Shown here: in pieces, positions 1-52,079 of the stretch
Numbering within the stretch: the first letter of the stretch is position 1
Layout: every line of letters starts with the position of its first letter
DNA from: a virus
DNA length: 52,079 nucleotides
Strand: one strand, 5' to 3'
IMG/VR virus record: IMGVR_UViG_3300035192_000069
Position numbers and translations under genes: made by a program
The notes under the pieces: model-generated
Seen by the model: only the letters and a program-made list of their open reading frames with translations
Database searches by the model: none
What the model was told of the DNA's origin: nothing

Positions 1-127
1 GGGTTGGGTTGCTTTTTGCTCATGGTTTGCCTTTCTCATCATCAGAGTGTAGAGCAACTCTCCATCCCTCTCAAGTGCTGGTGATACGGGCAATGCGGGC
101 ATCCCGGCCTGAGGGCGCCGTCCTCGA
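1..127. repeat. Terminal direct repeat, copy 1 (identical to 51953-52079)
   Basis: Base-by-base identity of gggttgggttgc...gccgtcctcga at both record ends. Confidence 0.95.
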
Positions 128-2734: not shown

Positions 2735-2982
2735 CAATTGGTGCCTCGACCGGTCGTTTTGAAATCGGTGACTTCCCACAATTCATCGAATTGCTTCAGG
2801 GTAACAGGGAGAAGATAGTCAATAACATTGACAATCGGGATGCCGCGATCAAAGCCGGTGACTATCCCCTCCATGCCAAATTGGATGTCTGCTATCCTTT
2901 TCCCTCTCCCGTCGATAATCAATATGACCGGAAAGCTACTTTTCGCCCGAACGTGCATGCCGAGCTCAATCTTCGTCGTCAT
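2734..2982 (-). CDS. Hypothetical protein
   Basis: Start MTTKIELG is preceded by GGAGGA. The track ORF extends upstream without an SD. Confidence 0.5.
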   Translation of the reverse strand: MTTKIELGMHVRAKSSFPVILIIDGRGKRIADIQFGMEGIVTGFDRGIPIVNVIDYLLPVTLKQFDELWEVTDFKTTGRGTN

Positions 2983-3151
2983 CGTAGAAATCCTCCATAT
3001 TGCCGTGTATCGGTGAAAAGCCATCACAATACCGATCTTGATGAATACGTTCTGCGTAGTGCTCACTCTCTTGGTTCTCGCAATCTCCCTCATTGCCTGA
3101 TCCGCCATAGAAGAAGTAGAAGCATTCCCAGCAAGACTTTTTTCTCTTCAT
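2966..3151 (-). CDS. Small Cys-containing acidic protein
   Basis: Start MKRKKSCWEC is preceded by GGGAGA; 61 aa. Confidence 0.4.
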   Translation of the reverse strand: MKRKKSCWECFYFFYGGSGNEGDCENQESEHYAERIHQDRYCDGFSPIHGNMEDFYDDDED

Positions 3152-3164
3152 GATGTCTCCCTTG

Positions 3165-3192
3165 AAAAACACCAGGAGGGGCCATCCCCTCC
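3165..3192 (-). terminator. Rho-independent terminator after the lipoprotein gene
   Basis: On the minus strand: GGAGGGG-ATGG-CCCCTCC followed by TGGTGTTTTTC. Confidence 0.6.
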
Positions 3193-3206
3193 CAGCGCAG
3201 TCAAAC

Positions 3207-3560
3207 CTACAGAGTCGAAGCCCTCTCCGCACGGTCCAACTGTCCGACCCAGTCCCGAACACATTTCAGAATCCCCGGGACATCCACAGCCTTCATGACG
3301 CAGTCGACCGGCAGTAATCCGGACATCAGCGCGATGTCGCAGTAGGGCTCAAACTCCACTCCTTCCGGCATGCGGCTCGTGATATGCTCCTTCACGATCT
3401 CTTTCACGAACCCTGCGCACTTCTCGTCGTTGAAGCACCCGACCTCCACCAGATGGGCCTCCACCGCGTCACACTTCGGCGCAGCAAGATCGGGGGTGAT
3501 CCTCGCGCCGCTGCATCCCAGAAATACAAACATCAGTCCAATTATAAATAGCACTTTCAT
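3207..3560 (-). CDS. Lipoprotein
   Basis: MKVLFIIGLMFVFLG|CSG signal peptide and lipobox. It is followed by its own terminator. Confidence 0.65.
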   Translation of the reverse strand: MKVLFIIGLMFVFLGCSGARITPDLAAPKCDAVEAHLVEVGCFNDEKCAGFVKEIVKEHITSRMPEGVEFEPYCDIALMSGLLPVDCVMKAVDVPGILKCVRDWVGQLDRAERASTL

Positions 3561-3606
3561 GCTTCCTCCTTGCCCCGTTGGGGCGGTTGATTAATTGTTG
3601 AGTATT

Positions 3607-4251
3607 TCACACCGCAAGCACTCCTTGCGCAAGACGCTGAATAGCTGACCGACAATACGTCTCTTCTATTTCAACACCAACAGCTCGATACCCAAGCGCC
3701 TTTGCCGCAACCAGTGTTGTCCCAGATCCAGCAAACGGATCCAGGATTACACCGCGATGGCAACAGGATATTAAGTCCATCATTAGAGACACGGGCTTTT
3801 CCATTGGATGCCATCTTGATTTTCTTCGTCCTACGCAGCCCGCTACAGCCAAATGTCGCAACACGGATCCTCTTCGCCTTCCAAAGAAACCTCTTCCGAT
3901 TACATATATCTCCTCATGGTTTGGCTTCCATGGCAACGAAAGATCCCCCATGCCAACATGTTCACCTTTCTCCCATATAAGTAAGTGTCGAGTATTTATC
4001 GGGCGAGCAATTTTCCATGTTCCAAACACAAGAGCAGGGCGTTCACCCCATGCGTCAAGCAGTGTGTCACGGGCAACGGTATCCAGATCGCCTTTTATTG
4101 AGCAGTCGCCTAACCGTCCTTTCATTCCACTGCTAAACCCTATCCCATATGGCGGGTCGGTAACCAGTACGTCAGCGCATATCGAGTCAAACACATCCCG
4201 GAAATCGCAATTAAAAATTGTAATCCCTGATTCCTCGTAATAGGGTTTCAC
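3607..4251 (-). CDS. DNA methyltransferase (N6-adenine/N4-cytosine, beta class)
   Basis: LVTDPPYG (motif IV) lies upstream of ILDPFAGSGTT (motif I). GTG 4251 overlaps the upstream TGA (GTGA). Confidence 0.85.
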   Translation of the reverse strand: MKPYYEESGITIFNCDFRDVFDSICADVLVTDPPYGIGFSSGMKGRLGDCSIKGDLDTVARDTLLDAWGERPALVFGTWKIARPINTRHLLIWEKGEHVGMGDLSLPWKPNHEEIYVIGRGFFGRRRGSVLRHLAVAGCVGRRKSRWHPMEKPVSLMMDLISCCHRGVILDPFAGSGTTLVAAKALGYRAVGVEIEETYCRSAIQRLAQGVLAV

Positions 4252-9024: not shown

Positions 9025-9773
9025 TAGGTGTCCATCCCGTATTTGACTGGAGCCAGTTTCAGTTTTGACTGTTCGGCCTGTTTCCGGATCGTGTTCTTCA
9101 GACAGTTCATCAACCACTGGTGCAGCTTGTTCCGGCCGTTGATGTCATACACTGGATCGTTGGGTGATTTGCTCGTTGAGATGTCTTCGAGCCATCGCAT
9201 CTGATCACCATCGAGCTGCACAAGGTAGATTTTCGCTTGCTGCACCCATGCGATGGCGTCCTGGGTTGAGCAATCGGGCCACGCGGTCAAAATGAATCTT
9301 GCGATATTTTGGTCTTCCAAGCTCGGAAGAAACTCCAATGCTTCATCGATTGGCTGTAGATCGACTTTCGATGTCTCCTCAACTTGATCCTTCGATGTAT
9401 TATTGTTTTTATATATATATTCTGTCTCTCCCTCTCCCTCTATCTCTGTCTCTGGATCAGCACATTGCTCCACTTTTGCTAGCAAGCTGTTATCATCATA
9501 AATAATCCAATGTTTTAGCTTCCGTATATGTCCTGCTAGCACTGTGCTATCAATTCGCAAGCGCCATGCTATCTCATCGAGTGACGGCAAATTTCCGACC
9601 TTCGCCTTATCCTCTGCTGCAAGCATCCAGAGAAGAACGAGTGTCTTCACGACGTCACCCTCAAGATCGTTGAACTCTTTGTCGTCCAGGAGCTTGCGAT
9701 GAAGTTTTATCCATGGCGGACATCTGTCCTTGTAATGTTGAAATTCGTGCCAGTTTTTAATTCTTAAAGTCAT
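9024..9773 (-). CDS. Replication initiator / replisome organiser (lambda-O / DnaD-like)
   Basis: The N-terminus is MTLRIKNWHEFQHYKDRCPPWIKLHRKLLDDKEF. It sits directly upstream of dnaB. Its acidic linker is encoded by an AT/polypyrimidine tract. Confidence 0.6.
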   Translation of the reverse strand: MTLRIKNWHEFQHYKDRCPPWIKLHRKLLDDKEFNDLEGDVVKTLVLLWMLAAEDKAKVGNLPSLDEIAWRLRIDSTVLAGHIRKLKHWIIYDDNSLLAKVEQCADPETEIEGEGETEYIYKNNNTSKDQVEETSKVDLQPIDEALEFLPSLEDQNIARFILTAWPDCSTQDAIAWVQQAKIYLVQLDGDQMRWLEDISTSKSPNDPVYDINGRNKLHQWLMNCLKNTIRKQAEQSKLKLAPVKYGMDT

Positions 9774-10402: not shown

Positions 10403-10607
10403 GGATGGTCCATGGCCTCAGAACGTCAATCTCGCTCCAAAACTACATATTTTCTGTCAGTCTTGATCGTTTTCTGAATATCTGGCAATTCCTGGAAATT
10501 TGCATTCTTTTCGAAACGATACATGCTTATCATCTGCGAAACAAATCGAAGACTTGGCGGGGAATACAGGTGGCACTGGTGCGCCAAATCAACAGGAAAG
10601 GTGCGAG

Positions 10608-11717
10608 ATGAGTAAGCATGTAAGACAGTCAAAACCCGCCAGGCATGGCAATCAATGGCAAATCAGATGGACCGATGAAACGGGACATAGGCGAAGCGAG
10701 ACGTGGAGCAACTACGAGGACGCCGAGCACGCCTTAGTGACTCACAAACTCCACGTGATGGAGATACGCCGTGGTCTCCGAGTAAGACCACCCAAGAGCC
10801 GTGGCTTTGAGGAACTGTGCCGGCAGTGGCTCGAGATACGCACAGTCAAAAAGCGCACTCCAAAGGACGACACATCAATTATCAGGGTGCATCTGCGGCC
10901 GACCTTCGGCCATTTGGATATCGACCAAATCACTGCTGAACGCATCGATATTTTTTCGGCGGCGCTTTCAGCGAAGCGTGCACCACAGACGGTGAGAAAC
11001 ATTCTAATTCTTCTGGGGGCCATGTTGAGACAGGCGGTAGAGTGGGGGTGGCTCTTGGGCGTTCCTAAGATTCATCTTCCACGAGTTCGACTATTTCCTG
11101 CTGACTGCAAATGGCTACGCACTATCGATGAGCGAGATCAATTCCTGCGCGCGGCGCAAAATCACGCATTGCAGGTTGTCTACCCTATGTACGCCACCGC
11201 TGTGCACACCGGAATGCGCGCCGGCGAGCTCGCGGGTTTACAGTGGCAAGATATAGACTTCGAGCGTCGCCTTATTACCGTTCAAAGGTCATATGGTGGC
11301 CCTACAAAAAGTGGTGATATCCGACGCATACCAATTGGTGACGGCCTACTTCCCATTCTGCGGGAGTGGCGGCTGGCCTGCGGCAACCGGCTGGCGTTTC
11401 CGAATACTGCCGGTCAGATGTGGGATCCGCGCGGGCGTATTTTCAAGACAGTATTCCAAAAAGTGCTTCAGCTCGGCGGATTCCCGCCGAAACATATCAC
11501 CTTCCATTCGTTGAGGCACACGTTCGCGAGCTATTTCTTGATGAATGGTGGCGACTTAGAAGGCCTACGACGGATTCTTGGTCACAAAGACTCGAAGACA
11601 ACCCAGCGGTATGCCCATTGGCGGCCCGATGCCTTTGACAAGTACTGGGGAATCATGGGGCCAACGAAGTGCCACGACGGCGAGGTGATCGAGATGCGCA
11701 AGAAGGAGGAGGCATGA
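10608..11717 (+). CDS. int: Tyrosine recombinase (phage integrase)
   Basis: The C-terminal motifs are HSLRHTFASYFL...LGHKDSKTTQRYAH. The start MSKHVRQ follows AGGAAAGG. The gene lies next to the tRNA-fragment attP. Confidence 0.92.
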   Translation: MSKHVRQSKPARHGNQWQIRWTDETGHRRSETWSNYEDAEHALVTHKLHVMEIRRGLRVRPPKSRGFEELCRQWLEIRTVKKRTPKDDTSIIRVHLRPTFGHLDIDQITAERIDIFSAALSAKRAPQTVRNILILLGAMLRQAVEWGWLLGVPKIHLPRVRLFPADCKWLRTIDERDQFLRAAQNHALQVVYPMYATAVHTGMRAGELAGLQWQDIDFERRLITVQRSYGGPTKSGDIRRIPIGDGLLPILREWRLACGNRLAFPNTAGQMWDPRGRIFKTVFQKVLQLGGFPPKHITFHSLRHTFASYFLMNGGDLEGLRRILGHKDSKTTQRYAHWRPDAFDKYWGIMGPTKCHDGEVIEMRKKEEA

Positions 11718-12960: not shown

Positions 12961-13166
12961 TTTCGGAGGCAATCGATTACTTCGAGGCCAGCGGCGAAAG
13001 GATCGAAGAGGCGGTAGGGAAATTCAATCGCGCCAGGACAGGTGTCCTGATGGCGATGAAAGAATCGAACGAGATGAGACCCGGGGATTCCGTCTCGATG
13101 AAGTTGTATGAGGCTTGCGGTTTCATTGAGAGCGGCATCGAGCTGCTGACGGGGGTTAAGGCATGA
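12903..13166 (+). CDS. Hypothetical protein
   Basis: 87 aa with an AGGAG SD. Confidence 0.5.
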   Translation: MGTTSKEVKDSIAMHLTTIVSEAIDYFEASGERIEEAVGKFNRARTGVLMAMKESNEMRPGDSVSMKLYEACGFIESGIELLTGVKA

Positions 13167-14575
13167 AGGTCATTCATTTTCGGATGCAAAACGTACTTGG
13201 CCTTAAACTCCTCGAGGTCGAGCCGGGGAAGATCACGGTTTTCGAGGGCGAGAACGGAACAGGCAAGACTTCGGTCGTGGAGGGGCTCCAAACTTTTTTC
13301 TCGAAACGATCGCTTAAGAGCCTGAAGAACATCGACGCCGGCGACGAGGAGGCCGAGATCGTTCTCACATTTGAAGGAGAGGACGGCCGCGTCATCGCCA
13401 AGCGTGGTGAGAACGCCATCACGGTGAAACGTCAAGTTGGTGATACAGCGGCGTTTGAGAAAGTCCCCTGCCCAGCACAGTATCTTCTGGACATTGCTCC
13501 AAGGGGAGCCGTGTTGAATCCAGTCAAGTTTCTTAGCACCGACGATAAAGAGCGGATCGACATGATTCTGAATGCTCTACCGGTGGAGTTCAACGAGAAT
13601 GATTTCTGGGCAAGTATCGGCCTGAACCCGGTGGACTACGACCCAGCACCGGCCACCGCGCACCCCCTCGTCAAGGTGGGGCTGTATCGCAAAAGCATCT
13701 TCGACCGTCGCACCTCGATAAACAGGGATGCAACACAGAAGCGCGGCGCGTGCGATCAGACGCGGCGCAAGGTCCCCATGGAGATCCCCACGGTGGAGGG
13801 GGTGGAGGACAAACGCGAAGAGCTCATACAGCTCAAGACCCGGCATGCACAAAGTGTTGCAAACATCAGCAATACCGCTCGCAGTGATGAAGCGCAAATC
13901 AAAGCGGAAATAATTCATGCCGAGCAATTGGCCCGTTCAGAGATCAGCGCATTCCAGCAAATGGTCTACCGCGAGGCAGAGGAAAGAATTGCCGCAAAAC
14001 AGCGAGAGTTGGATGAAACTCTCCAGGAGAAGAGGAAAGCCGCAGAGCAGCGCATCGTGGTAATCCATGCGGCACGGGACGCCTCGATGGAAAACATCAA
14101 CAAGCTACTACCCAAAATCGAATCGCTCGCCGAAGAGATCGGCACCATGAACGAGCGTGTGAAAGATGCCGAGCGCATCAGACAAACTCACGAAATTGCC
14201 GATGGATTCGAATCGGAAGCGATTGCCCTCGAGGAGGATGCCAAGGCGCTCACTGCGGCCCTTTCGAGACTGGAAGCCTATAAGGCCCAGATGGTCGAGA
14301 ACCTACCAATCCCGGGGCTCGACATCACGGATGGAAAGGTCACCGTGGACGGTGTCCCATGGCCCCAAGTCAACACGGCCCGGAGAATATCGATTGCCGT
14401 GCAGGTGATCTGTCTCCGCTTCGGTGATGCGAAGTTCAAGCCCGTATTCATGGACGGTGCGGAAGCACTAGACTCCAGGTCCATGGAGATTCTAGAGGCC
14501 GAGCTCGAACGGTATGGCGCCCAAGGGTTCATCGCCCGGGTGGCAGACGAGAACCGGATCAGGAAGGTGGGGTGA
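13163..14575 (+). CDS. SMC/RecF/Rad50-like AAA ATPase with a coiled-coil middle
   Basis: The Walker A motif is FEGENGTGKTSVVEGL. The centre is long and helical. The C-terminal region DGAEALD looks like a Walker B/D-loop. Confidence 0.7.
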   Translation: MKVIHFRMQNVLGLKLLEVEPGKITVFEGENGTGKTSVVEGLQTFFSKRSLKSLKNIDAGDEEAEIVLTFEGEDGRVIAKRGENAITVKRQVGDTAAFEKVPCPAQYLLDIAPRGAVLNPVKFLSTDDKERIDMILNALPVEFNENDFWASIGLNPVDYDPAPATAHPLVKVGLYRKSIFDRRTSINRDATQKRGACDQTRRKVPMEIPTVEGVEDKREELIQLKTRHAQSVANISNTARSDEAQIKAEIIHAEQLARSEISAFQQMVYREAEERIAAKQRELDETLQEKRKAAEQRIVVIHAARDASMENINKLLPKIESLAEEIGTMNERVKDAERIRQTHEIADGFESEAIALEEDAKALTAALSRLEAYKAQMVENLPIPGLDITDGKVTVDGVPWPQVNTARRISIAVQVICLRFGDAKFKPVFMDGAEALDSRSMEILEAELERYGAQGFIARVADENRIRKVG

Positions 14576-14745
14576 TGAAAAAGAACAAGACATTGGTCTC
14601 AAACAGGAGAAAACGGAGAAGCACAGCCAAGTACCTGGAGGGTGGTGGTGAATCTCAATACGCCAGGAAAAAAGCATATTGCCACAAAAACGGCGTGTGG
14701 GGTTTTGAGGTACCCGATCCCAAGCCGTGGAGGTCAAACAAATGA
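14575..14745 (+). CDS. 56-aa basic protein (absent from the ORF track)
   Basis: MKKNKTLVSNRRKRRSTAKY...; TGATG overlap upstream and ATGA overlap downstream. Confidence 0.45.
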   Translation: MKKNKTLVSNRRKRRSTAKYLEGGGESQYARKKAYCHKNGVWGFEVPDPKPWRSNK

Positions 14746-15872
14746 ACCAAGAGATACAACAATACCAACCGCCCGCCATCGAGATGGGCGGCGATACAAG
14801 CATGGTGCAGGCGGCCGAAACCATATCGAGCGTCTTGGCCGCGCAGGCCGAAGCGGAGGTAAAGGCCCGCTACATCGTGGCGATGCAGCGACCGCGCAAT
14901 ATCGAGCGGGTTCGGCAAGCACTCAAGCAAGAATGCGAGAGACCGGGTTTCTCGGATGTCGCTTTCTATCGCCTGCCCCCTCGCAGCAAAAAACGAGATG
15001 CGAAACCAATCCAGGGACTATCCGTCCGGTTTGCCGAAGCGGCATTCAGGGCGATGGGCAATCTCGACATGAAGGCTATCGTCACCTACGAGGACGACGA
15101 GATGAGGATTCTCCGGGCCACTGTCATCGACATCGAAAGTAACGCCGCAGTCTCCACCGATATCCCTGTCAAGAAGACTATCGAAAGGCGATACCTGAAG
15201 GATGGAGAAACAGCCATCTCGCAAAGGCTTAACTCAGATGGGAAGGTCGTTTATCTGCGACGGGCAACCGATGATGAAATCACCCCAAAGCAGAACTCGG
15301 CGATCTCCAAGGCATTCAGGAACGGAATACTTCGGTTGTTGCCCGGAGACATCCAGGACGAGTGCGAAAGGCGGATTCTACAGATCCGTCAAGGCGCCGT
15401 GCCAACTGACCCCAAAGAGCAGGTTCGAAGGGTCATTGACTCCTTCGGTTCCATCGGGGTCGATGCAGACGACTTGGTGAAATACCTCGGGCACAAGGTG
15501 GAGACCTGCTCTCCCGCCGAGCTCCAGGGGCTACGCGATCTCTACAGCGCGATACGAGCGGGTGAGACGACCTTTCATGAGGAGCTATCGGCCCGGGAGG
15601 AGCCCGAAGAACCCAAGAAGACAAAGACCGAGCAGCTCAAGGACAGCTTGAGAAGCGAGGTAGACAGAAAGCTAAACCGATTGCGCGATGATGCCGTCGA
15701 CATGGCCAAGGAGATCTGGGGTGATGATGCCATCCTCAAGCTCGGACAGCATGTCCGCAAGCACGGTGTTTCCTCCATTGGCAGCGCCGATGAACCGACC
15801 TTGCAGAAAATAATCGATGAATTCAACAGCATGCTCAGCGGAGCATTGAGTGAGGAGACAGACAAGAAATGA
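14742..15872 (+). CDS. Putative single-strand annealing protein (RecT/Red-beta-like)
   Basis: The start follows GGAGG. The motif is AEVKARYIVAMQRPRN...GLSVRFAEAAFRAMGN. It sits between the ATPase and exonuclease genes. Confidence 0.5.
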   Translation: MNQEIQQYQPPAIEMGGDTSMVQAAETISSVLAAQAEAEVKARYIVAMQRPRNIERVRQALKQECERPGFSDVAFYRLPPRSKKRDAKPIQGLSVRFAEAAFRAMGNLDMKAIVTYEDDEMRILRATVIDIESNAAVSTDIPVKKTIERRYLKDGETAISQRLNSDGKVVYLRRATDDEITPKQNSAISKAFRNGILRLLPGDIQDECERRILQIRQGAVPTDPKEQVRRVIDSFGSIGVDADDLVKYLGHKVETCSPAELQGLRDLYSAIRAGETTFHEELSAREEPEEPKKTKTEQLKDSLRSEVDRKLNRLRDDAVDMAKEIWGDDAILKLGQHVRKHGVSSIGSADEPTLQKIIDEFNSMLSGALSEETDKK

Positions 15873-43030: not shown

Positions 43031-44139
43031 TCCACCACCCATCCCTTGTGTTTGGCCAAAAAGGCTTGTCGGTCCTTCTCGTCCTGGCTGGCTGTCAATG
43101 CAGCGGCATCGCCAGCGGTGTTGATCTCGGGCGGGTTGTCGTCCTGGCGAGCCTGGATCATGTTGCGCTTCATAGCGGCTGACATGTGCTGCGCCTTCAC
43201 CATTTCGGTGATGCCATCTCCGTCCTTGATCGCCTTGTGAGCCGCCTCGACATCGCCGCTTCCTTCTGCGAGGATGAGGTGAGCACAGGCACGCTCGTGC
43301 TCCTCTTTGGAGCCCGCCTCTTTGCCCGCGTTGAAAACAGCGTCATACGTGGCCCGGTGCTCTTCCTTCAGTGTTTTCGGGTCCATCTTGTCTCCTATCT
43401 TTGCCGCCTTGGATTCGGCGGGCTGGTTGTTCATGATTCCGTCAATCATCTTCTTCTGGAGGGCGGTCCTGGCGGTCATTACGGCCCCTTGGCCGTAGTC
43501 TCGCTTGACTTTGTCGACAGTGGTCTTGCGGCCAGCTGCAATCATCTCTGCATACACCTCATAAAAGTCGTCGAGCTCCTCCTCGACAACCTTCTTCCCC
43601 TCTTCGGTGGTCACGTCCGGCCGCTTGTTCCTACTGTCCGAGTTGGTAATGTCGATGATTCTGTCGGACACGTACATCGCTGTTGCAATGCCGACACTTC
43701 CAACTGCCGAGACTTCGCTCTCGGCGATGATTTCATTGGTTTGTGACGCCAGCATGTAGGCCGCGGATGCGAGCGTGTCGCCGGCAATCGTCCTCGTCGG
43801 GACGCTTGCCGAAGCAATCGCCTTCATCGCGTCATACAGACCATCGACATACCCTCCAGGACTGTCGATTTCAAAATTAATTTGCTTGGCGCCCTTGTAT
43901 TGGGCCTCGGCTACGTCGGAAATGATCTCCGAGTAGACCGCGTAATCTTCTTCCCAATAGTCGAGCCAAGAGTTGCGCTTCGGATAGAGCGGCCCTTTTA
44001 TCTTAATGGTCGCAACCCCGTTCTTGACCTGCACAGGATCGCGATCTTTCGATTTTGCCTCCGGGAGGGGCTGCCCGACGACACTGGCGAACAGGTATGC
44101 AAGTCTCTCGACTTCGTCTTGGAGCATCAGTAGCTTCAT
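43027..44139 (-). CDS. S49 (SppA/ClpP-fold) prohead protease with a scaffold-like C-terminal half (lambda C/Nu3 type)
   Basis: The peptidase motifs are FEIDSPGGYVDG and TLASAAYMLASQ. The C-terminal ~150 aa are helical and charged. Confidence 0.8.
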   Translation of the reverse strand: MKLLMLQDEVERLAYLFASVVGQPLPEAKSKDRDPVQVKNGVATIKIKGPLYPKRNSWLDYWEEDYAVYSEIISDVAEAQYKGAKQINFEIDSPGGYVDGLYDAMKAIASASVPTRTIAGDTLASAAYMLASQTNEIIAESEVSAVGSVGIATAMYVSDRIIDITNSDSRNKRPDVTTEEGKKVVEEELDDFYEVYAEMIAAGRKTTVDKVKRDYGQGAVMTARTALQKKMIDGIMNNQPAESKAAKIGDKMDPKTLKEEHRATYDAVFNAGKEAGSKEEHERACAHLILAEGSGDVEAAHKAIKDGDGITEMVKAQHMSAAMKRNMIQARQDDNPPEINTAGDAAALTASQDEKDRQAFLAKHKGWVVE

Positions 44140-45794
44140 GCCGCGGCCTCCTCCTCGACCATATCCGTTGGATCAAAGACTCCCATACCGAGCGCTTTCA
44201 TCGCATCGGTGACGTTCTTCTCGCCAAACTCGCGCTGTGCCTCGAGGATGGGACGCATCGCCTTTACCTTCATGCGGTTTTCCTTCTCCAGTTTACGGAT
44301 CGTCTTGTCGAACTTGGAACCAGTGAGCGCCCTTGAGGCGTGGCTGTTTGTCTCCCATCCCTCAGAGACCATTGCCTTGTGAGCATTGACCTCTTTGAGA
44401 ATGTCGACTGATGGCTTGATGGAGCCAATCCAATCGATTGATAGCCAAGCCTGTTTGACGTCATATTGCATCGGGTCGGACAGCGCCTCGAGGAACCCGG
44501 GGGCCTCGATTTTTCCAAGCAGTAGCTCGGATATAAACCACTCCTCGATGAGATTCTGGCAGTGCTGAGAAGCAAACCGTGCCCGTTTCTCGTCGAGCAC
44601 CATAATGAATTCGCGCAGAGCCGCTTGAGATGCCGAGTAGTTGCTGTTGAAACTCAGTAGGAGAATCTCCGGTGGAATCTCCATTGCCCATGAGAGGCCA
44701 GCTACAATGGCCGACTCGAACGACGCGAAATTCACGTCCGTACCATGGACAGAATACGGGACTGGTTCTTCGCCCGGCTGCAACGAACCAAACCATACCC
44801 CTGGCAGGATCCTGCTGACCTCCACGGGCCTCGTTTCGCCCGTCGTGTCATCTGTGACGCTGTCCTTGCGCACGGCTCCGTTACCGATGTGAGGAATCAT
44901 CTTGGCTTCTTGTGCCCGCTTGATGAATCCAATGATCATAGCATTGATCGATGATTTGAGTTGAGCGCTGTCCCTATTTTTCTGGATCTCATTGAGCGGC
45001 TGGATCGCCATGCCAAGCCCGGGCATCCCACGCACGTCGTCCTCGCGCTTGTTCGGACCGTAGACAAGCCAAGCGGTGTGGCGACCCGACCTCGGCCCGT
45101 GCGCAGGCACGTAGACGTAACTGTCGTTGAGAATGTGATCGGTTCCCTGATAGACCCAGAACCCGAGGTGCTTGCCGTTCTTGTCGAGCTTTACACCGTC
45201 GACAATATTTTCGTCCATCGCATGCTCGGGTGGGGTCTGCACACGGTTGCCGGAGACAATCTGAATCTGAGGGAGTCCCGTTGGTTTGTGCTGTCGATTG
45301 ATGACCAGGCAGTCCCCATCGATAAATGCCTCTTGGTAGATTTGGGCTTGTTGCTCTCCATCGATTCGGTATCCCTTGCAATCGATAATGTCTTTCGCCT
45401 TGCCGTAGAGCCGGTAGCGATTCTCCATTTTGTTGGCCCAGTCGACGAGGGAATCCTTTGGCGCGCCGATGACAGATTCTTCTGGCGTAAACTCCGGCTC
45501 CAATCCTTTGTGGATCACATTGGTAACGAGGCGATTTACAATTCCGATAGCATAGGTGTTCGTCCGGAATAGGGCTCCACTTCGGGCTCGAAGTGTCCAG
45601 TAGTCGAGTGACGCGATCTCATCGATTTGGCCGGAAACACCTCCCCAGAAATTCGCCCCATCGTACGTGCCTGTCGGTGGAGAAATGAATTGAGATTGGG
45701 CTTGAATCGGAACCGGTTCGGGTTCTTCAGCTGCTGGCGAATCGGGCCAGATCCAGGGGAGCTCCTCTTCCTCGATGCGGCGGCCCCAGCTCAT
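44136..45794 (-). CDS. Portal protein, lambda family
   Basis: 552 aa. The start MSWGRRIEEE overlaps the gpW stop (ATGA). It sits between the gpW and protease genes. Confidence 0.85.
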   Translation of the reverse strand: MSWGRRIEEEELPWIWPDSPAAEEPEPVPIQAQSQFISPPTGTYDGANFWGGVSGQIDEIASLDYWTLRARSGALFRTNTYAIGIVNRLVTNVIHKGLEPEFTPEESVIGAPKDSLVDWANKMENRYRLYGKAKDIIDCKGYRIDGEQQAQIYQEAFIDGDCLVINRQHKPTGLPQIQIVSGNRVQTPPEHAMDENIVDGVKLDKNGKHLGFWVYQGTDHILNDSYVYVPAHGPRSGRHTAWLVYGPNKREDDVRGMPGLGMAIQPLNEIQKNRDSAQLKSSINAMIIGFIKRAQEAKMIPHIGNGAVRKDSVTDDTTGETRPVEVSRILPGVWFGSLQPGEEPVPYSVHGTDVNFASFESAIVAGLSWAMEIPPEILLLSFNSNYSASQAALREFIMVLDEKRARFASQHCQNLIEEWFISELLLGKIEAPGFLEALSDPMQYDVKQAWLSIDWIGSIKPSVDILKEVNAHKAMVSEGWETNSHASRALTGSKFDKTIRKLEKENRMKVKAMRPILEAQREFGEKNVTDAMKALGMGVFDPTDMVEEEAAA

Positions 45795-46054
45795 GCGGAC
45801 CTCACCAGGCTTGTCCCGCTGCCGTTGAGTCTGGTATCGAGCCAATCCAAGCGGAGATAGAGCTTGTCGAGCTCGACGTTTAGCCGCGATATATCCTTCT
45901 TCGTCACCGTCTGCCGGGTCTGGCCTGTATCAATCGTGTAGCTCTGGAGATTTCCAGTAGACAGCGCAAGAATAGCGTCCTCGATGGCCTCGATGGCCGT
46001 TTTGGTCTTATCGATCCGAGATTGGAGCCATGTTGCGGTTATTGCTGATGCCAT
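45791..46054 (-). CDS. Head-tail joining protein gpW-like
   Basis: 87 aa with the pattern AILALSTGNLQSYTIDTGQTRQTVTKKDISRLNVELDKL, as in lambda W. Confidence 0.65.
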   Translation of the reverse strand: MASAITATWLQSRIDKTKTAIEAIEDAILALSTGNLQSYTIDTGQTRQTVTKKDISRLNVELDKLYLRLDWLDTRLNGSGTSLVRSA

Positions 46055-46194
46055 GTCTCATAGCCCAAAATTGAGACAAAAATGTCTCTCTGAGACAAGT
46101 ATGTCTCATTAGTGTCTCACTGGTCAAGCGAGAATGTATAAAAATGTCTCACTTGTATAATTATATAATAAATACAGCTATTTAGATTGTCTCA
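46054..46194. promoter_or_regulatory. Iteron-like array: 8 copies of TGTCTC(A)/TGAGACA plus an AT-rich block with divergent TATAAT boxes
   Basis: Direct copies lie at 46054, 46083, 46102, 46113, 46145 and 46188. Inverted copies lie at 46072 and 46091. TATAAT lies at 46156-61 (+) and ATTATA at 46160-65 (TATAAT on the minus strand). Confidence 0.7.
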
Positions 46195-46226
46195 AAAAAA
46201 GATTTTGCCTGATTCACTTTTTTGCT

Positions 46227-46246
46227 GGACACATCCGGATGTGTCC
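46227..46246. promoter_or_regulatory. Perfect 20-bp palindrome (operator candidate) upstream of the island
   Basis: GGACACATCCGGATGTGTCC, followed by TATAGT at 46249-54. Confidence 0.6.
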
Positions 46247-46301
46247 GCTATAGTAGGTACAGATGGTCGCAATGAAGCGACCATGAGCAAAGGAGAGACA
46301 G

Positions 46302-46469
46302 ATGACAAACTTAACAGGACACGAAGCCATCGAATTCAAGCGAGCAAACCCAGAAGCCAAGCTCAGCAAATACGCCGATCCTACTGAGGACGCGCGAGAG
46401 GACATCTCGGTAGAGGATGCTGAGGAAATCGCCAGCGAAGACCCCAGTCTTATCTACGTTGCAGACTGA
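46302..46469 (+). CDS. Island gene 1: 55-aa acidic protein (absent from the ORF track)
   Basis: MTNLTGHEAIEFKRANPEAKLSKYADPTEDAREDISVEDAEEIASEDPSLIYVAD, with an AAAGGAGAG SD. Confidence 0.55.
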   Translation: MTNLTGHEAIEFKRANPEAKLSKYADPTEDAREDISVEDAEEIASEDPSLIYVAD

Positions 46470-46512
46470 ACCGACCCCCACCCTGTCCCAGACATCTCGG
46501 GGGTGGGAGTGG
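46467..46512 (+). repeat. Intergenic hairpin element, copy A
   Basis: TGAACCGACCCCCACCCTG, 16 variable nt, then GGTGGGAGTGG. Confidence 0.8.
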
Positions 46513-46542
46513 CGACTGATTCGACCAAAAAAGGAGAGCAAA

Positions 46543-46788
46543 GTGAAAATGCATTACAAAGAAGTATGTGGTATCGATCCGAAATACCCCGAATGGGGAT
46601 ACAACATAGAAGGAAGACTCTTTCTCTTTGAGAAAGAGTCGAGAACATGGAAATTGTTCTCCTATACGGGAGGGTGGCGGGAGTGTTCGGAGCCAGACTG
46701 TACGCTGCTTCCTATTGCTCCACAAGAAGCAATCGATTTTCAGAGGCGCCGACCGGCGCCTAGATTCAGATTTAAATGTGATCGCTGA
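46543..46788 (+). CDS. Island gene 2: hypothetical protein
   Basis: GTG start 6 nt after AAGGAGAG; 81 aa. Confidence 0.5.
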   Translation: MKMHYKEVCGIDPKYPEWGYNIEGRLFLFEKESRTWKLFSYTGGWRECSEPDCTLLPIAPQEAIDFQRRRPAPRFRFKCDR

Positions 46789-46831
46789 ACCGACCCCCAC
46801 CCTGCCCGCCACTATGTGACGGTGGGAGTGG
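46786..46831 (+). repeat. Intergenic hairpin element, copy B
   Basis: Same 19-nt and 11-nt arms as copy A, with a different 16-nt centre. Confidence 0.8.
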
Positions 46832-46862
46832 AGGCCGATTCGGCCAAGACAAGGAGTATAAG

Positions 46863-47258
46863 ATGAATACGAAAAAAACATGGACAAAGAGCGAACTATG
46901 GGCAGCAATGTGTCAATACGAAGGAGAGTTCACGCTCGCACATGCAGAAAGCGTCCTGAAGTATTTTGACTGTGGCGAGTGCCCCGGAAGAGTCGGGGAT
47001 GAGTGTGACACTTGTCCCATAAAGAAGGCGGAGACTGTTAGGGGTAATTATTTGTGGAAAATGGCTGCCGATACTCACCAATATTGCTACAAAACAGACG
47101 GAGAAAGCGGGATAATTCAGGCATCCTCGATTGAGGATGCTCGTGACAAAATGATTATCGAGGCCGGCCTTACGCCGGCAGCAATCAAGAATGGAGCATG
47201 GGGCTGGGTGGAGGATTGCGATGGCGTCCGAATCTACGTCGCCGAAGAAAACATATAG
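46863..47258 (+). CDS. Island gene 3: hypothetical protein with a CxxC..CxxC motif
   Basis: AAGGAG SD; CGECPGRVGDECDTCP. Confidence 0.55.
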   Translation: MNTKKTWTKSELWAAMCQYEGEFTLAHAESVLKYFDCGECPGRVGDECDTCPIKKAETVRGNYLWKMAADTHQYCYKTDGESGIIQASSIEDARDKMIIEAGLTPAAIKNGAWGWVEDCDGVRIYVAEENI

Positions 47259-47292
47259 TGGTCGATTATCGGCCAAGCAAAGGAGTGTAAAG

Positions 47293-47781
47293 ATGGGAGA
47301 ATTATTAGATCAAGTAATGGCCGGAGGGCCGACAGAGTTGGAATTAGATTCTAAGCAACAGCGTGTCGTGGATTGTCTGAAGGAGGACCCATCGGGTTGG
47401 GCTTGGCAATTGTCCAGAGAGCAAATATTAAATCCATTACGAGAGGCGGTGAAAGAAGAACTTCTTTCAGATTCCTCCTGTAAATTAAGCTGTGCATTCT
47501 TAACCTACGATATGTTGATTGAGTCGTGCGCCAGCGAAGACGACTCGGAGTCCTGGGCCCGTAAGTTGATTGCGTGGATGAGTCCGCATTTGACTCAGTT
47601 CCATTTCGGGCCAAAAGGTTGGCACGATGCATTTCGGAGTGCTATTGTCAAGGAGGCCAAGTGGTTGCGAGACCACGAAAAATACCAAAAAGCTGCTCGA
47701 GTTGACAGTCCAGATCTTCCTGTGTGGGAAAACAAGGCGTGCCTTGTACTGGCGGAGCTGTTGGAGGCGGAGACAGTATGA
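47293..47781 (+). CDS. Island gene 4: hypothetical protein
   Basis: AAGGAG SD; 162 aa. Confidence 0.55.
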   Translation: MGELLDQVMAGGPTELELDSKQQRVVDCLKEDPSGWAWQLSREQILNPLREAVKEELLSDSSCKLSCAFLTYDMLIESCASEDDSESWARKLIAWMSPHLTQFHFGPKGWHDAFRSAIVKEAKWLRDHEKYQKAARVDSPDLPVWENKACLVLAELLEAETV

Positions 47782-47851
47782 CAGACTACGTCCGAATGGA
47801 GAAGCGTCACAGAAATCACAGGTTGCCGTGGTCGCGGCCAAGGGGTGAGAG

Positions 47852-48130
47852 ATGAGCACCGACGCGGCCGTGACGGCCGCTCGCCTACTACTCGAAGCGA
47901 ACGTCCCGAGCGGCATCACCCAAGAGCGGATCGACCGGCTCGCCGAGGTGATAAAGGGACTCACCGAAGATGAGCTTTCACGGCTCAGAATCGAGACATG
48001 TGCCCACGGGGGAGGGGACCCGGAGCGATACGGGAAACGGAAGAAGCGCGCCGGGCGGGCTGTCAAGATAGGGACCGCTGGCGTACATCCTGGTGAGAAA
48101 GGCGTCCAGATTTGGGCGGTATGGGCTTAG
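47852..48130 (+). CDS. Island gene 5: hypothetical protein
   Basis: AAGGGGTGAGAG SD; 92 aa; its 3' end overlaps the terL 3' end by 4 bp (convergent). Confidence 0.5.
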   Translation: MSTDAAVTAARLLLEANVPSGITQERIDRLAEVIKGLTEDELSRLRIETCAHGGGDPERYGKRKKRAGRAVKIGTAGVHPGEKGVQIWAVWA

Positions 48131-50118
48131 GCTGCCTCCTTCCAGAACACCCCGCTCTTGCAGTACTGCCAGAACTGGTACCAGTCGATCCCTTCCATCT
48201 GGTGTTCTCTCACACAAATCCACCAGGCAAGAATCTCCACCGAGCAGTGCCCGTAAACCATGAGATCCCAAAGTTCGTTTTGAGCGCCATGGGGACGGTG
48301 CCAATAGTAGGTCACGTAGCCATTGGGCCATTCCTTCTTTCTTCTATATTCCTTGGTCAACTCTTTGAGTTCGTCGTCATCGGTATCAAGTGGCGCGTTG
48401 AAGGTATAGGATGGCTGGGATCCTTCGGACGGGTGCCAATCCCTGCGTAGCACGGGGGCAAGCCGGTCCTTGTAGTGGTCGACCAGGATTCTGTACCCTA
48501 TTGTCCCCGCCTGGGTTGTGAATTCGGCAAATTCCTTGATCGTCTGAGCTTTGGCAGGCCTCTCTCGCCCCATGATTGGGAACACCCAGAATTCCCACTG
48601 CTGACAAAATTCGACGACGATAGAGGTGTTCCAGCTCGAATCGATGAGTGTCATCGACAGGCGGTATTGTTTTCCATTATCCGCCGTCCATACCCCGTTG
48701 TCGATCATATCCTGAAGCCTGCCCCAAGCCGGTGATTTGATTTCCTCGCAGCCATTTTCCGAATCATCCTTGAATCGCTGGTAATCGATCAGCCAACATG
48801 TGAAACTGGCCGTCCATCCCCACACGGCAACGGCCAGATTGTCTTTGTGAACATCCACCGTGCAGGTTAAAAACAGAATCCCGGAGTCGCAGCACTTCTC
48901 GATTTCGCGGTTCGGTATCTGTCCTTTGAAGTAGAAACGGCGCCGGTGAGCCGAAACCGCTTCGAACCGGACTCTTCCGCCAAGGAGCTTAAACGGTACA
49001 CCGAAATGATTGTTGTAAACCGACTGCATCAGGTCGATGTCACGAACCTTGCCAGTCTTCGGGTCGATGGCAGAGACCCAGTCGTTTACAATCTCGTACC
49101 ACGGCCCGAGGCCGGCCGGTGACAGGAAGGACGGAACGTGATAGCTTCGGATATTCGGCTCTACCGGAGTGGCTGTTGGCTCCCAGGAGCAGTTGCCTTT
49201 GTTTATGAATTTCGGCTTGTCGTGTTCGAAGTGTTCGTGATCGCAGTTTTTGCAGTGGTACCGAACCGTATCGGCATCAACTTGACCCTCGGCGTTGTAT
49301 TCCCATTTGAAACCGTACTCCTTGCCGGTCTCCTTGTTGACGCCGTTCCATCTGAGGTGCTGGGGATAGCCACATTTGAGGCAGCGGCACTTGTAGACCC
49401 GCTGGTCGCCGCGTTTGAACTCCCTCTCAATCCGGCTTGTTCCCTCGATCAACGGGGTCGACCCCATCATGATTTTGCGGACTTCCCAAAAGGCTCGCGC
49501 TCGCTTTTTGAACAGCGCGATCTTATCGCCCCCTCCGGTGACCTTGCCGCCCCATGTCTCCGCGTCTATCTCGTCCATGAATATGTACTGCATGGAAAAC
49601 GAGCGGATCTTGCTGATATTATTCGCCCCGTAGGGAATCAGATAGCCGCCGCCCTTCCACTGTAGGTGGTTCTTGGTCTTTCCAGTCTTCCGTAAGTTGC
49701 CGATGTCTGCGGACTGGAAGATGTCCATGTCGGAGTACTGGAACATCGGGATGATGTTCTCCTCCATCCGCTCCCCCATCATTTCCTTGTCCATAGTGGC
49801 GAATAGGACCGGAAGTGTCCGCAGATGTCCGGCGACATAGAAGATCGGCGCCTCAATCCCGAGGGTGGTGTACGCCACTTGAACACCCTTCATAACCGAC
49901 ACCTCCCGGACGGGGGAGCGGATGTCCATGCATTCGAGTATCTCTATCCAATAGGGCGTGAGCGACATGTCGAGGGGGCCACCGAAGCGGGATATGGACG
50001 GGGGGATGTATCGGAATTGCTCGTTGAACTCCACCGGGGAGAGCTCGAGGAGCTCCTCGGTGAACGTTCCGACGTATTCGGATGCCCAGCCTGCTCCAAT
50101 CTGGTCAATCGCGAGCAT
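48127..50118 (-). CDS. terL: Terminase large subunit, lambda GpA family
   Basis: 663 aa. Motifs include VMKGVQVAYTT, FMDEIDA and the zinc-ribbon CRCLKCGYPQHLRW...YHCKNCDHEH, as in lambda A. ATG 50118 overlaps the terS stop. Confidence 0.9.
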   Translation of the reverse strand: MLAIDQIGAGWASEYVGTFTEELLELSPVEFNEQFRYIPPSISRFGGPLDMSLTPYWIEILECMDIRSPVREVSVMKGVQVAYTTLGIEAPIFYVAGHLRTLPVLFATMDKEMMGERMEENIIPMFQYSDMDIFQSADIGNLRKTGKTKNHLQWKGGGYLIPYGANNISKIRSFSMQYIFMDEIDAETWGGKVTGGGDKIALFKKRARAFWEVRKIMMGSTPLIEGTSRIEREFKRGDQRVYKCRCLKCGYPQHLRWNGVNKETGKEYGFKWEYNAEGQVDADTVRYHCKNCDHEHFEHDKPKFINKGNCSWEPTATPVEPNIRSYHVPSFLSPAGLGPWYEIVNDWVSAIDPKTGKVRDIDLMQSVYNNHFGVPFKLLGGRVRFEAVSAHRRRFYFKGQIPNREIEKCCDSGILFLTCTVDVHKDNLAVAVWGWTASFTCWLIDYQRFKDDSENGCEEIKSPAWGRLQDMIDNGVWTADNGKQYRLSMTLIDSSWNTSIVVEFCQQWEFWVFPIMGRERPAKAQTIKEFAEFTTQAGTIGYRILVDHYKDRLAPVLRRDWHPSEGSQPSYTFNAPLDTDDDELKELTKEYRRKKEWPNGYVTYYWHRPHGAQNELWDLMVYGHCSVEILAWWICVREHQMEGIDWYQFWQYCKSGVFWKEAA

Positions 50119-50711
50119 CACGCCTTGGGCACCTGCAGTGCCTTTTTCATCGCGGCCTTGGCCGGGCGGATAAATGCCGTGAGGCGCTTCCGGACCTCCT
50201 CTTCAATCTCTTCGACCGGGGCGCCGCCCTTTATCATGGGATGCACCTTGGCGGCGATGGTCTTGGATCCCTCGGAGAGCAGGCGGACGAACATCGTTTC
50301 AATGGGTACAAAGATACCATTCTTGACGACCTCCCGAGCGACGAGGCGGCGTTCAATTTGGCCGTTCTTGAGCTCGAGGTGGCGAGCTTGGGCGGCGAGC
50401 TTTTGGATCTCGAGAGCGGTCTTGCTCTTCATTCCGGCAGTGATCTCGTCATCGTCCTGGGCCTCGGGAAGGGGTTCCGGTTTCTTCTTTGGGGTGGACT
50501 TCCTGTTTTTCGGCTTCGATTGAGGCGAGGTGGAGGGGGTCGCCGGTTCTGACTTCCGATTTCGGAATTCCAGGTATGACTTGACTTCGGGGGTGCTCAC
50601 GTCGATCCCGCCGTCGGTCTCGGGAATCCTGCCGCGAGCGATGAGCTTCGACACAGTCGATTTGGAAATGCCCGCGAGCTTGGAGAAGTCGCCCTTTGAG
50701 ATAATGCTCAT
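50118..50711 (-). CDS. terS: Terminase small subunit, Nu1-like (N-terminal winged HTH)
   Basis: MSIISKGDFSKLAGISKSTVSKLIARGRIPE; directly upstream of terL. Confidence 0.7.
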   Translation of the reverse strand: MSIISKGDFSKLAGISKSTVSKLIARGRIPETDGGIDVSTPEVKSYLEFRNRKSEPATPSTSPQSKPKNRKSTPKKKPEPLPEAQDDDEITAGMKSKTALEIQKLAAQARHLELKNGQIERRLVAREVVKNGIFVPIETMFVRLLSEGSKTIAAKVHPMIKGGAPVEEIEEEVRKRLTAFIRPAKAAMKKALQVPKA

Positions 50712-51684: not shown

Positions 51685-51975
51685 CTACCAAATCTCCCAG
51701 CTATCCGGATCCGCAATCCTCTGCAGGGCTGCGGTGGCCTCCTCGCTCAATGGCTCGTCAATCCACGGGTCATAGTCACCATCTTCATCAATGAGCCAAT
51801 CAGCATACTCGATGGACAGCAGTAATGGACACTGACGAGTCAGCAGCAGCGTAGAAAAGCCAACCGAACAGCCCTTTAGGATTGGTGGCGTCAGTCGTTT
51901 CATCGGTGGGGCCGGTGGGGGCGAAGGTCGTTTCGATATGCTTGGGGGTGGAGGGTTGGGTTGCTTTTTGCTCAT
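51685..51975 (-). CDS. Hypothetical protein with a Pro-rich N-terminus and acidic C-terminus; its start lies in the terminal overlap
   Basis: GAGAAAGG SD; MSKKQPNPPPP...IEYADWLIDEDGDYDPWIDEP. Confidence 0.45.
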   Translation of the reverse strand: MSKKQPNPPPPSISKRPSPPPAPPMKRLTPPILKGCSVGFSTLLLTRQCPLLLSIEYADWLIDEDGDYDPWIDEPLSEEATAALQRIADPDSWEIW

Positions 51976-52079
51976 GGTTTGCCTTTCTCATCATCAGAGT
52001 GTAGAGCAACTCTCCATCCCTCTCAAGTGCTGGTGATACGGGCAATGCGGGCATCCCGGCCTGAGGGCGCCGTCCTCGA
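51953..52079. repeat. Terminal direct repeat, copy 2 (circular closure overlap)
   Basis: Identical to 1-127. Confidence 0.95.

Follow-up and report, generated by a model that had tools for sequence, protein, structure and literature searches.

A candidate hypervariable gene array with a structured intergenic element at the terL–gpW junction of a lambda-like phage

Genes and leader at the terL–W junction

IMG/VR virus record IMGVR_UViG_3300035192_000069 is a stretch of 52,079 nucleotides (hereafter the window) in which five small genes, g1–g5, lie between the terL gene and a gene for a gpW-like head–tail adaptor (W). We describe these genes, the structured element (E) that joins some of them and the related arrays of other phages; feature coordinates are collected in Table 1. 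A sequence-only reading of the same DNA had listed five plus-strand open reading frames (ORFs) at this site, and the ORF listing and the raw sequence confirm their exact coordinates, including the 4 bp overlap between terL and the convergent last ORF. It had also proposed that the block interrupts an otherwise contiguous terL–W–portal order, and comparison of synteny with relatives agrees: W follows terL after a gap of 61 bp in Oceanospirillum phage PD0307, and the 345 bp between the two genes in Acinetobacter phage Scuro contain no gene. In Shewanella phage SppYZU01 a single unrelated same-strand gene lies between terL and a W-like gene. Because cultured relatives have terL beside W, the block is an insertion and not an ancestral part of the module, and because SppYZU01 carries a different single gene there, the junction tolerates insertions.

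The GC content is 38% in the leader of the block, 50% in g1–g4, 55% in the flanking genes and 63% in g5; the proposed AT-richness of the block is therefore found in the leader and g1–g4 and not in g5. The GC content at third codon positions is 0.45–0.55 in g1–g4, 0.60–0.75 in the backbone genes and 0.69 in g5. Codon usage is foreign or atypical in g1–g4 and native, backbone-like in g5. Strong AAGGAG-type Shine–Dalgarno sequences (SDs), which had been reported for all five genes, precede g1–g4; the SD before g5, AAGGGGTGAG, is weaker. Compared with homologues on related contigs, g1–g4 give ratios of nonsynonymous to synonymous polymorphism (pN/pS) of 0.13–0.51 (0.2–0.5 for g1 and 0.13–0.20 for g2), with differences mostly at third codon positions, and are on these grounds real genes. 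The g2 homologues have ATG at the codon aligned with the GTG start in the window. Only four differences separate g5 from its close relatives, too few for a pN/pS judgement; its coding support comes from a backbone-like in-frame codon-usage score and from a 57%-identical homologue at the same position in contig L163. That homologue keeps the same 4 bp convergent overlap, which is found with three terL alleles, and g5 is 98% identical in contigs L015 and L024 despite a terL that is only 49% identical. We infer that g5 is probably resident, linked to the end of terL at its 3′ side, and not imported cargo.

The product of g1 is, as first described, an acidic peptide of 55 residues, with a pI of 4.2 and 15 Asp and Glu against five Lys and Arg residues. 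The paired CxxC motif attributed to g3 is present in its N-terminal part, g3N, as CGEC-x8-CDTC (CxxC-x8-CxxC). It had been stated that none of the five proteins could be placed in a known family, and indeed g1–g5 have no family match in Pfam, PHROGs, PADLOC, NCBIfam or PDB sequences. PADLOC-DB 2.0 gave no defence-family match to any of them at E ≤ 1, no helix–turn–helix (HTH) domain was found in g1–g5, and the array proteins of the window contain neither membrane-like segments nor enzymatic domains. A profile search with g1 returned at least 391 clusters of proteins of 53–97 residues, all unannotated; these relatives are encoded in small-gene clusters on phage-like contigs of 36–64% GC. A tblastn search of 50,697 cultured phage records and 72,556 plasmids with one member of the family (P0074) gave no match. 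One profile match of g1, which covered 40 residues of catalase at E = 0.0014, was judged spurious.

The AlphaFold2 (AF2) model of g1 has a confident small beta-alpha-beta-beta-alpha-beta fold, with a predicted local distance difference test score (pLDDT) of 87, and that of g4 is all-alpha (pLDDT 81). Remote relatives of g4 form a family of phage proteins of 146–177 residues, all beginning MGELLDQ(I/V)MxGGP; one is encoded near the integrase of a P22-portal phage and another in a small-gene cluster with DUF3560. Giant NACHT/HEAT-repeat proteins also matched g4, and these hits were discounted as artefacts of helical repeats. The structure search that had been suggested for all five proteins was run on two: Foldseek gave nothing below E = 0.6 for the g1 model against PDB or for the g4 model against PDB and BFVD, and no relatives of known function were found for g1 or g4 by sequence or fold. 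Inside g2 lies a perfect 11 bp inverted repeat (GACTCTTTCTC-TTT-GAGAAAGAGTC, 46616–46640), the pairing of which is kept by compensatory changes in contigs L010 and L024. This hairpin scores as terminator-like on the minus strand and could stop late read-through from terL.

A promoter-like leader of its own had been claimed for the block, and a predicted promoter overlapped by a perfect palindrome bears this out (Table 1). The array leaders of other phages have a common layout, with an A/T tract, strong −35 and −10 boxes, a hairpin with an AAYRAA-type loop in the 5′ untranslated region (5′-UTR) and an SD. A GACAC..GTGTC palindrome starting in the −35 box is common to the window, L156 and L163, and no gene is common to all three of these arrays. 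An autorepressor encoded in the array was considered for the palindrome and rejected, as arrays with the same palindrome type share no gene. The palindrome may be an operator or a stem-loop resembling the promoter-early stem-loops (PeSLs) of T4-like phages and, by analogy with the latter, may be a structural element rather than an operator.

The 141 bp from the W start codon to the array promoter contain one TGTCTCT besides seven TGTCTCA heptamers, and one copy abuts the W ATG. This region is 96–100% conserved in L015 and L024. Because the heptamers are absent upstream of arrays in other backbones, the cluster probably belongs to the W and head-operon side, and it may provide regulator sites for the head operon. 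An assignment of the repeats as terS-binding cosB sites was rejected, as they are 96–100% kept in L015 and L024, where terS is only 39% identical.

Table 1. Positions of the array, its leader and junction elements and the adjoining head genes in the window
Feature	Position	Strand	Description
AT-rich divergent control region	46054–46194		7 of the 8 TGTCTCA heptamers of the genome, in both orientations
Predicted sigma-70-type promoter	46226–46254	+	TGGACA-17 nt-TATAGT; 10/12 consensus match; T-rich tract upstream
Perfect 20 bp palindrome	46227–46246		GGACACATCC and GGATGTGTCC as adjoining halves; overlaps the −35 box and spacer; no second copy in the genome
5′-UTR hairpin	46265–46282	+	GGTCGC-AATGAA-GCGACC; between the −10 box and SD
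g1	46302–46469	+	55 residues, acidic; hallmark gene, at or near the array head
E copy A	46466–46545	+	hairpin 1, 46478–46492/46497–46512; hairpin 2, 46514–46518/46522–46526; A-rich tract and SD; 79 bits
g2	46543–46788	+	81 residues, basic; GTG start; cassette between two E copies
E copy B	46785–46865	+	hairpin 1, 46797–46811/46816–46831; hairpin 2 GGCCG-ATT-CGGCC, 46833–46845; 83 bits
g3	46863–47258	+	131 residues; in-frame fusion of g3N (~46863–47078) and g3C (~47082–47258)
Half-E junction before g4	47259–47292	+	hairpin-2-like GGTCGATTATCGGCC, then AAAGGAG; repeat family D8
g4	47293–47781	+	162 residues, all-alpha, acidic; starts with the MGELLDQVMAGGP motif
g5	47852–48130	+	92 residues, basic; probable resident terminal gene, convergent on terL with a 4 bp overlap (48127–48130)
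terL (lambda gpA type)	48127–50121	−	Pfam GpA_ATPase 1e-44, GpA_nuclease 6e-36; right boundary of the insertion
gpW-like head–tail adaptor (W)	45791–46054	−	87 residues; left boundary of the insertion; assigned from position and a weak phrog_118 match (1.5e-5)
Portal	44136–45845	−	Pfam Phage_portal_2 6e-45

Element E and the turnover of cassettes

Element E, which the sequence-only reading did not pick up, is the most distinctive feature of the locus. It runs for ~80 nt from the stop codon of one cassette to the start codon of the next and consists of a 14 bp GC-rich bulged hairpin (hairpin 1), a 5 bp triloop hairpin (hairpin 2; GGCCG-AUU-CGGCC) and an A-rich tract with AAGGAG. In addition to the junctions listed in Table 1, a degenerate E remnant was seen by inspection before g5. 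In 16 hand-picked copies of E 92% of the cells are paired, against 30–47% when the partners are slid by 1–3 columns, and four pairs show changes on both sides. A covariance model (R1) built from those 16 copies found 28 sense-strand copies in ten loci and none in 21 control loci. In the larger alignment 90% of the cells are paired, against 23–49% when slid, and eight pairs (23 cells) have changed on both sides; the observed covariation was reached in none of 500 shuffles. The copies in L156 are divergent, with hairpin 2 rebuilt from the unrelated sequence CCAA-ATTAA-TTGG. Rfam gave no match at E ≤ 1 over 45700–48400, and a strict E pattern recovered only three loci from metagenomes of the Joint Genome Institute (JGI).

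As E keeps one orientation and carries the SD of the next gene, a role in expression fits. It is not followed by a T-run on either strand and was therefore dismissed as a candidate intrinsic terminator. No −35/−10 pair was seen by inspection in the internal E elements, and inspection of the alignment revealed no attC-like core (GTTRRRY), terminal inverted repeats or target duplications in E. In L010 (1391–1420) and L024 (~9310–9340) the C-terminus of an 87-residue cassette (..WPEKE, then stop) is encoded by the 3′ half of E (GGCC.ATTGGCCAGAAAAGGAGTAG), so that junction sequence has there been absorbed into coding.

The gene order in the window is g1-E-g2-E-g3(N+C)-g4-g5. The corresponding orders in related phages (cassettes in parentheses by length in residues) are g1-E-g2-E-(87)-g3C-g4-g5 in L024, g1-E-(122, Cys/His-rich)-E-g3C-g4-g5 in L015 and (57)-g1-E-g3N-g2-E-(87)-(64)-E-g4-g3C-(89) in L010. 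In L010 g3N (68 residues) and g3C (62 residues) are separate genes in different places; g3C occurs alone in L015 and L024, and g3N alone in L027. Since its parts are separate genes elsewhere, g3 of the window is an in-frame fusion of two cassettes. Relative to the window, L015 and L024 are mosaic in the middle of the array, with a g5 block that is 94–100% identical and head genes that are 95–100% identical. When the window is aligned by blastn with L010, L015 and L024, the homologous segments have an edge at E or half-E, which is the pattern expected from recombination through E.

When the array ORFs of 11 loci were clustered, g1 was present in nine, the g3 parts in five, g4 in five, g2 in four (the window, L024, L010 and L152) and g5 in four, and each of ~20 other cassette families was found in one to four of the 11 arrays. 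The first gene is g1 in six of its nine arrays; one or two small cassettes stand ahead of it in L010, L017 and L027. No combination of genes is co-inherited among the 11 arrays, and gain, loss, permutation and fusion of cassettes occur independently. The proposal that the five genes form one undescribed system, for which co-occurrence of the block in other genomes had been suggested as a check, is therefore not upheld: each gene has been gained, lost or moved singly, and g3 is itself a fusion. The related description of the block as accessory cargo suits g1–g4, as the content varies between near-identical phages, and does not extend to the resident g5.

Several cassettes have unusual structures. 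The g1 proteins of L027 (11126–11416, minus strand) and L153 (5998–6309, minus strand) continue at the C-terminus into a further acidic domain of 40–50 residues, which is another case of fused cassettes. L163 has a single large cassette of 283 residues (2968–3906) upstream of its g5 homologue, which has in common with a 112-residue cassette of L027 a domain of ~85 residues (44% identity, E = 9e-19); domains of cassettes have thus also been recombined. A 249-residue cassette protein of L156 (6263–7012) consists almost entirely of tandem eight-residue repeats (..LSxVRGD..).

Phages unrelated to that of the window also contain arrays in which E forms the junctions and g1 stands first or close to first. 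These arrays lie in a 51.8 kb contig with DNA polymerase A (L027/L151), in an AT-rich contig with an SNF2 helicase (L153), adjoining recombination genes (L017) and between a PAPS-reductase/ParB pair and DNA polymerase A (L156). The backbones that carry E range from 35 to 53% GC. The array has a GC content of 52% in L153, against 35% in the rest of the contig, and of 47% in L027, against 36%; as GC-rich islands in AT-rich backbones these two arrays are recent imports. In other phages the homologues of g1–g4 are far from structural genes. Because the same cassettes sit in the early and replication regions of those phages, early lytic expression is favoured over lysogen-specific expression.

The surrounding phage genome

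An identical overlap of 127 nt is present at both ends of the window (1–127 and 51953–52079), which thus represents a phage genome of ~51.95 kb assembled as a circle. Several JGI and Sequence Read Archive (SRA) metagenomes contain contigs that are nearly identical to it, with lengths of 50.9 and 52.1 kb. The genome encodes a tyrosine integrase (10500–11717), a DnaB helicase and a YqaJ exonuclease, and no tRNA genes were found in it. The phage has a lambda-type head module and is predicted to be temperate from its integrase gene alone; as a tyrosine integrase is encoded, a prophage state is possible. The nearest cultured phages have Acinetobacter, Oceanospirillum, Shewanella and Vibrio as hosts, with a portal identity of merely 42–44%. 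A scan of GTDB genomes with a loose E pattern gave 120+ single matches in GC-rich genomes, none of which was confirmed by nhmmer or tblastn, and no prophage copy; a search of IMG/VR with terL as a single protein gave no match.

In cultured relatives ORFs of 87–88 residues lie upstream of the portal gene at the position of the gpW-like gene. This gene, the portal and the leader are 93–100% identical between the window, L015 and L024. When window positions 48130–50711 are compared with L015 (6208–8815) and L024 (10395–13002), terL has 49% and terS 39% amino-acid identity, and DNA identity drops within the last ~175 nt of terL (about 48150–48300). These alignments point to a swap of the whole terminase module between the window and L015/L024, with its junction inside the 3′ end of terL. 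Downstream of the integrase a 470-residue protein (13163–14575, plus strand), listed together with 14727–15872 (plus strand), carries an ATPase head of the ABC/SMC type (Pfam AAA_23 and AAA_15). Weak matches to the PADLOC AriA, GajA and PtuA models (best 1.6e-7) cover its first ~60 residues, and the protein may be an ATPase for recombination or may serve in defence from the prophage.

Interpretation and comparison with known systems

We interpret the block as a hypervariable array of accessory genes, a moron-type hotspot in which cassettes are shuffled, at the terL–W junction of a temperate lambda-like phage, and give this interpretation a probability of about 0.6. The architecture rests on the insertion, the promoter-like leader, the covariation of E, the turnover of cassettes, the breakpoints on E and the spread across backbones. 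Host RNA polymerase would produce a single polycistronic transcript from the promoter at 46226–46254. In this transcript E would act as an insulator that separates or stabilizes the cistrons and presents the next SD, much as the early RNase III sites of T7 or repetitive extragenic palindromic (REP) elements do; at the DNA level it would provide portable homology through which co-infecting phages exchange cassettes, as with the PeSLs of T4-like phages. Each product, a small and soluble protein that is in most cases acidic, would act on its own, probably at an early stage of infection, with host takeover or counter-defence as the most probable role. Given the architecture and shuffling model, we put a counter-defence or host-takeover function at somewhat below an even chance; it is a guess from the small size and mostly acidic charge of the proteins, the position of g1 at or near the head, the early or replication context and the lack of defence-type domains. 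Because there is no terminator between g5 and terL, array and late transcription converge and may interfere, which would make early and late expression mutually antagonistic.

Several points weigh against this interpretation. Sequence is the only evidence for the promoter, for what E does and for when the array is expressed, no protein has a recognizable fold or a homologue of known function, and the counter-defence role is a guess. On the plus strand g5 is followed by no predicted intrinsic terminator, and the block thus departs from the classical autonomous promoter–gene–terminator moron; its insertion and the atypical composition of g1–g4 do agree with a moron. The larger E alignment was fitted to the covariance model. 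The folding energies of the E hairpins are no better than those of GC-rich shuffles (z from −1.9 to +0.2), so that support for the structure rests on covariation. The E-bearing arrays number ~10, all metagenomic and several from related samples, and do not represent fully independent events. The g1 family also occurs without E in contigs L154 and L157; g1 and E are therefore separable.

The sequence-only reading had favoured a defence role, and the block might accordingly be a moron that is expressed in the lysogen from its own promoter and encodes a new defence or superinfection-exclusion system. The tyrosine integrase, the host-type predicted promoter with a unique overlapping palindrome that could be an operator, the insertion and the atypical codon usage agree with such a system, and defence genes are known from phage hotspots (PMC9122126; bioRxiv 10.1101/2024.10.15.618418). 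We nevertheless consider it unlikely, since the genes are not co-inherited, none matches a PADLOC family, the products (55–162 residues) are soluble and without enzymatic or membrane domains, and the cassettes of other phages lie in early or replication regions with no integrase within the 10–13 kb examined. Like the morons of lambdoid phages (Juhala et al., 2000; Cumby et al., 2012; as cited in bioRxiv 10.1101/2024.10.15.618418), the block adds genes between two that adjoin in relatives and has its own predicted promoter and an atypical composition. It differs from the single promoter–gene–terminator unit in being an array of several cassettes with internal shuffling, in having no terminator that could be found and in its orientation against the late operon.

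A still less probable alternative is that E and the cassettes constitute a selfish, self-propagating unit of little benefit to the phage, akin to a miniature inverted-repeat transposable element (MITE) or to an integron with a dedicated recombinase. A conserved structured repeat at every cassette boundary, arrays that form compositional islands in AT-rich phages and a head promoter followed by promoterless cassettes would all be expected of it. However, the flanks examined contain no integrase or transposase adjoining an array (the integrase of the window is 35 kb away), E shows neither an attC-like core nor terminal inverted repeats or target duplications, purifying selection acts on the cassettes, and the constant orientation of E with the SD of the next gene suits expression. 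We regard as very improbable an origin of the block in ordinary packaging, head-assembly or late-regulation accessory genes of the morphogenesis module: it is missing from cultured relatives with the same head module, lies on the opposite strand and varies in content though the head genes are 95–100% identical, and the homologues of g1–g4 elsewhere are distant from structural genes. These observations outweigh its position between terL and W, the TGTCTCA cluster adjoining the W start and the convergent overlap of g5, which is kept with three terL alleles; for g5 alone a morphogenesis role could still hold.

For the hypervariable array that we prefer, the closest known system appears to be the shuffling mediated by PeSLs, which are mobile regulatory cassettes of the hyperplastic regions of T4-like phages (Arbiol et al., 2010, PMC2839356; Comeau et al., 2014, PMC4122927). 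Both are small repeated intergenic elements beside ORFans in a hypervariable region, with a stem-loop followed by an SD and start codon at the end of the element, and in both the breakpoints of homology between close phages fall on the elements, here between the window and L010, L015 and L024. The array leader also fits the published PeSL layout (PMC2839356). In contrast to PeSLs, the internal E junctions are promoterless, with one promoter per array; E is longer, with two conserved hairpins, and is common to backbones of 35–53% GC; and its carriers are lambda-like temperate phages and unrelated PolA/SNF2 phages and not T4-like myoviruses. The array resembles an integron in its single head promoter, its promoterless cassettes and the structured repeat that bounds each of them. 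Unlike in an integron, there is no adjacent intI (the sole integrase of the window is at 10500–11717), E lacks attC R and L boxes, and E stands upstream of each gene and supplies its SD.

The early operon of T7 has host RNA polymerase promoters, RNase III sites between the early genes and, as its first gene, 0.3, which encodes Ocr, an acidic DNA mimic. The array is similar in its strong predicted promoter of host type, its structured elements between cistrons and the small, very acidic protein encoded at or near its head, but g1 has no sequence or fold similarity to Ocr and the stems of E are shorter than classical RNase III sites. Mu-like Pseudomonas phages carry anti-CRISPR operons with an Aca autorepressor; these likewise comprise a variable set of small genes within the head-gene region and a strong promoter overlapped by an inverted repeat. 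The block differs from them in that it has no HTH or Aca-like protein and is oriented opposite to the late genes, and in that the arrays with the GACAC..GTGTC palindrome (the window, L156 and L163) share no gene.

New proteins for counter-defence and host takeover now come mainly from the small, fast-evolving accessory genes of phages, and the movement of these genes between phages is, to our knowledge, poorly understood outside T4-like phages. If the block were merely a variable hotspot without a phenotype it would be an instance of ordinary phage mosaicism. Its main interest may lie in E and the g1-headed arrays as a platform for gene exchange across phages. We tentatively suggest, as a bolder possibility that we do not favour over its negation, that g1-headed, E-joined arrays are integron-like in function, with E both insulating the cistrons of a single early transcript and offering portable homology, that unrelated phages with backbones of 35–53% GC trade small counter-defence genes through them and that the widespread acidic g1 acts early to inhibit a common host barrier. 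Two uncharacterized protein families are defined by the present analysis, that of g1 (at least 391 clusters) and that of g4 (MGELLDQ-type), and are candidates for functional screens. The covariance model of E, which marks such cassettes in unrelated phages, would be a sequence handle for collecting accessory genes from metagenomes, and exchange mediated by E would provide a testable mechanism for the modular shuffling of phage genes.

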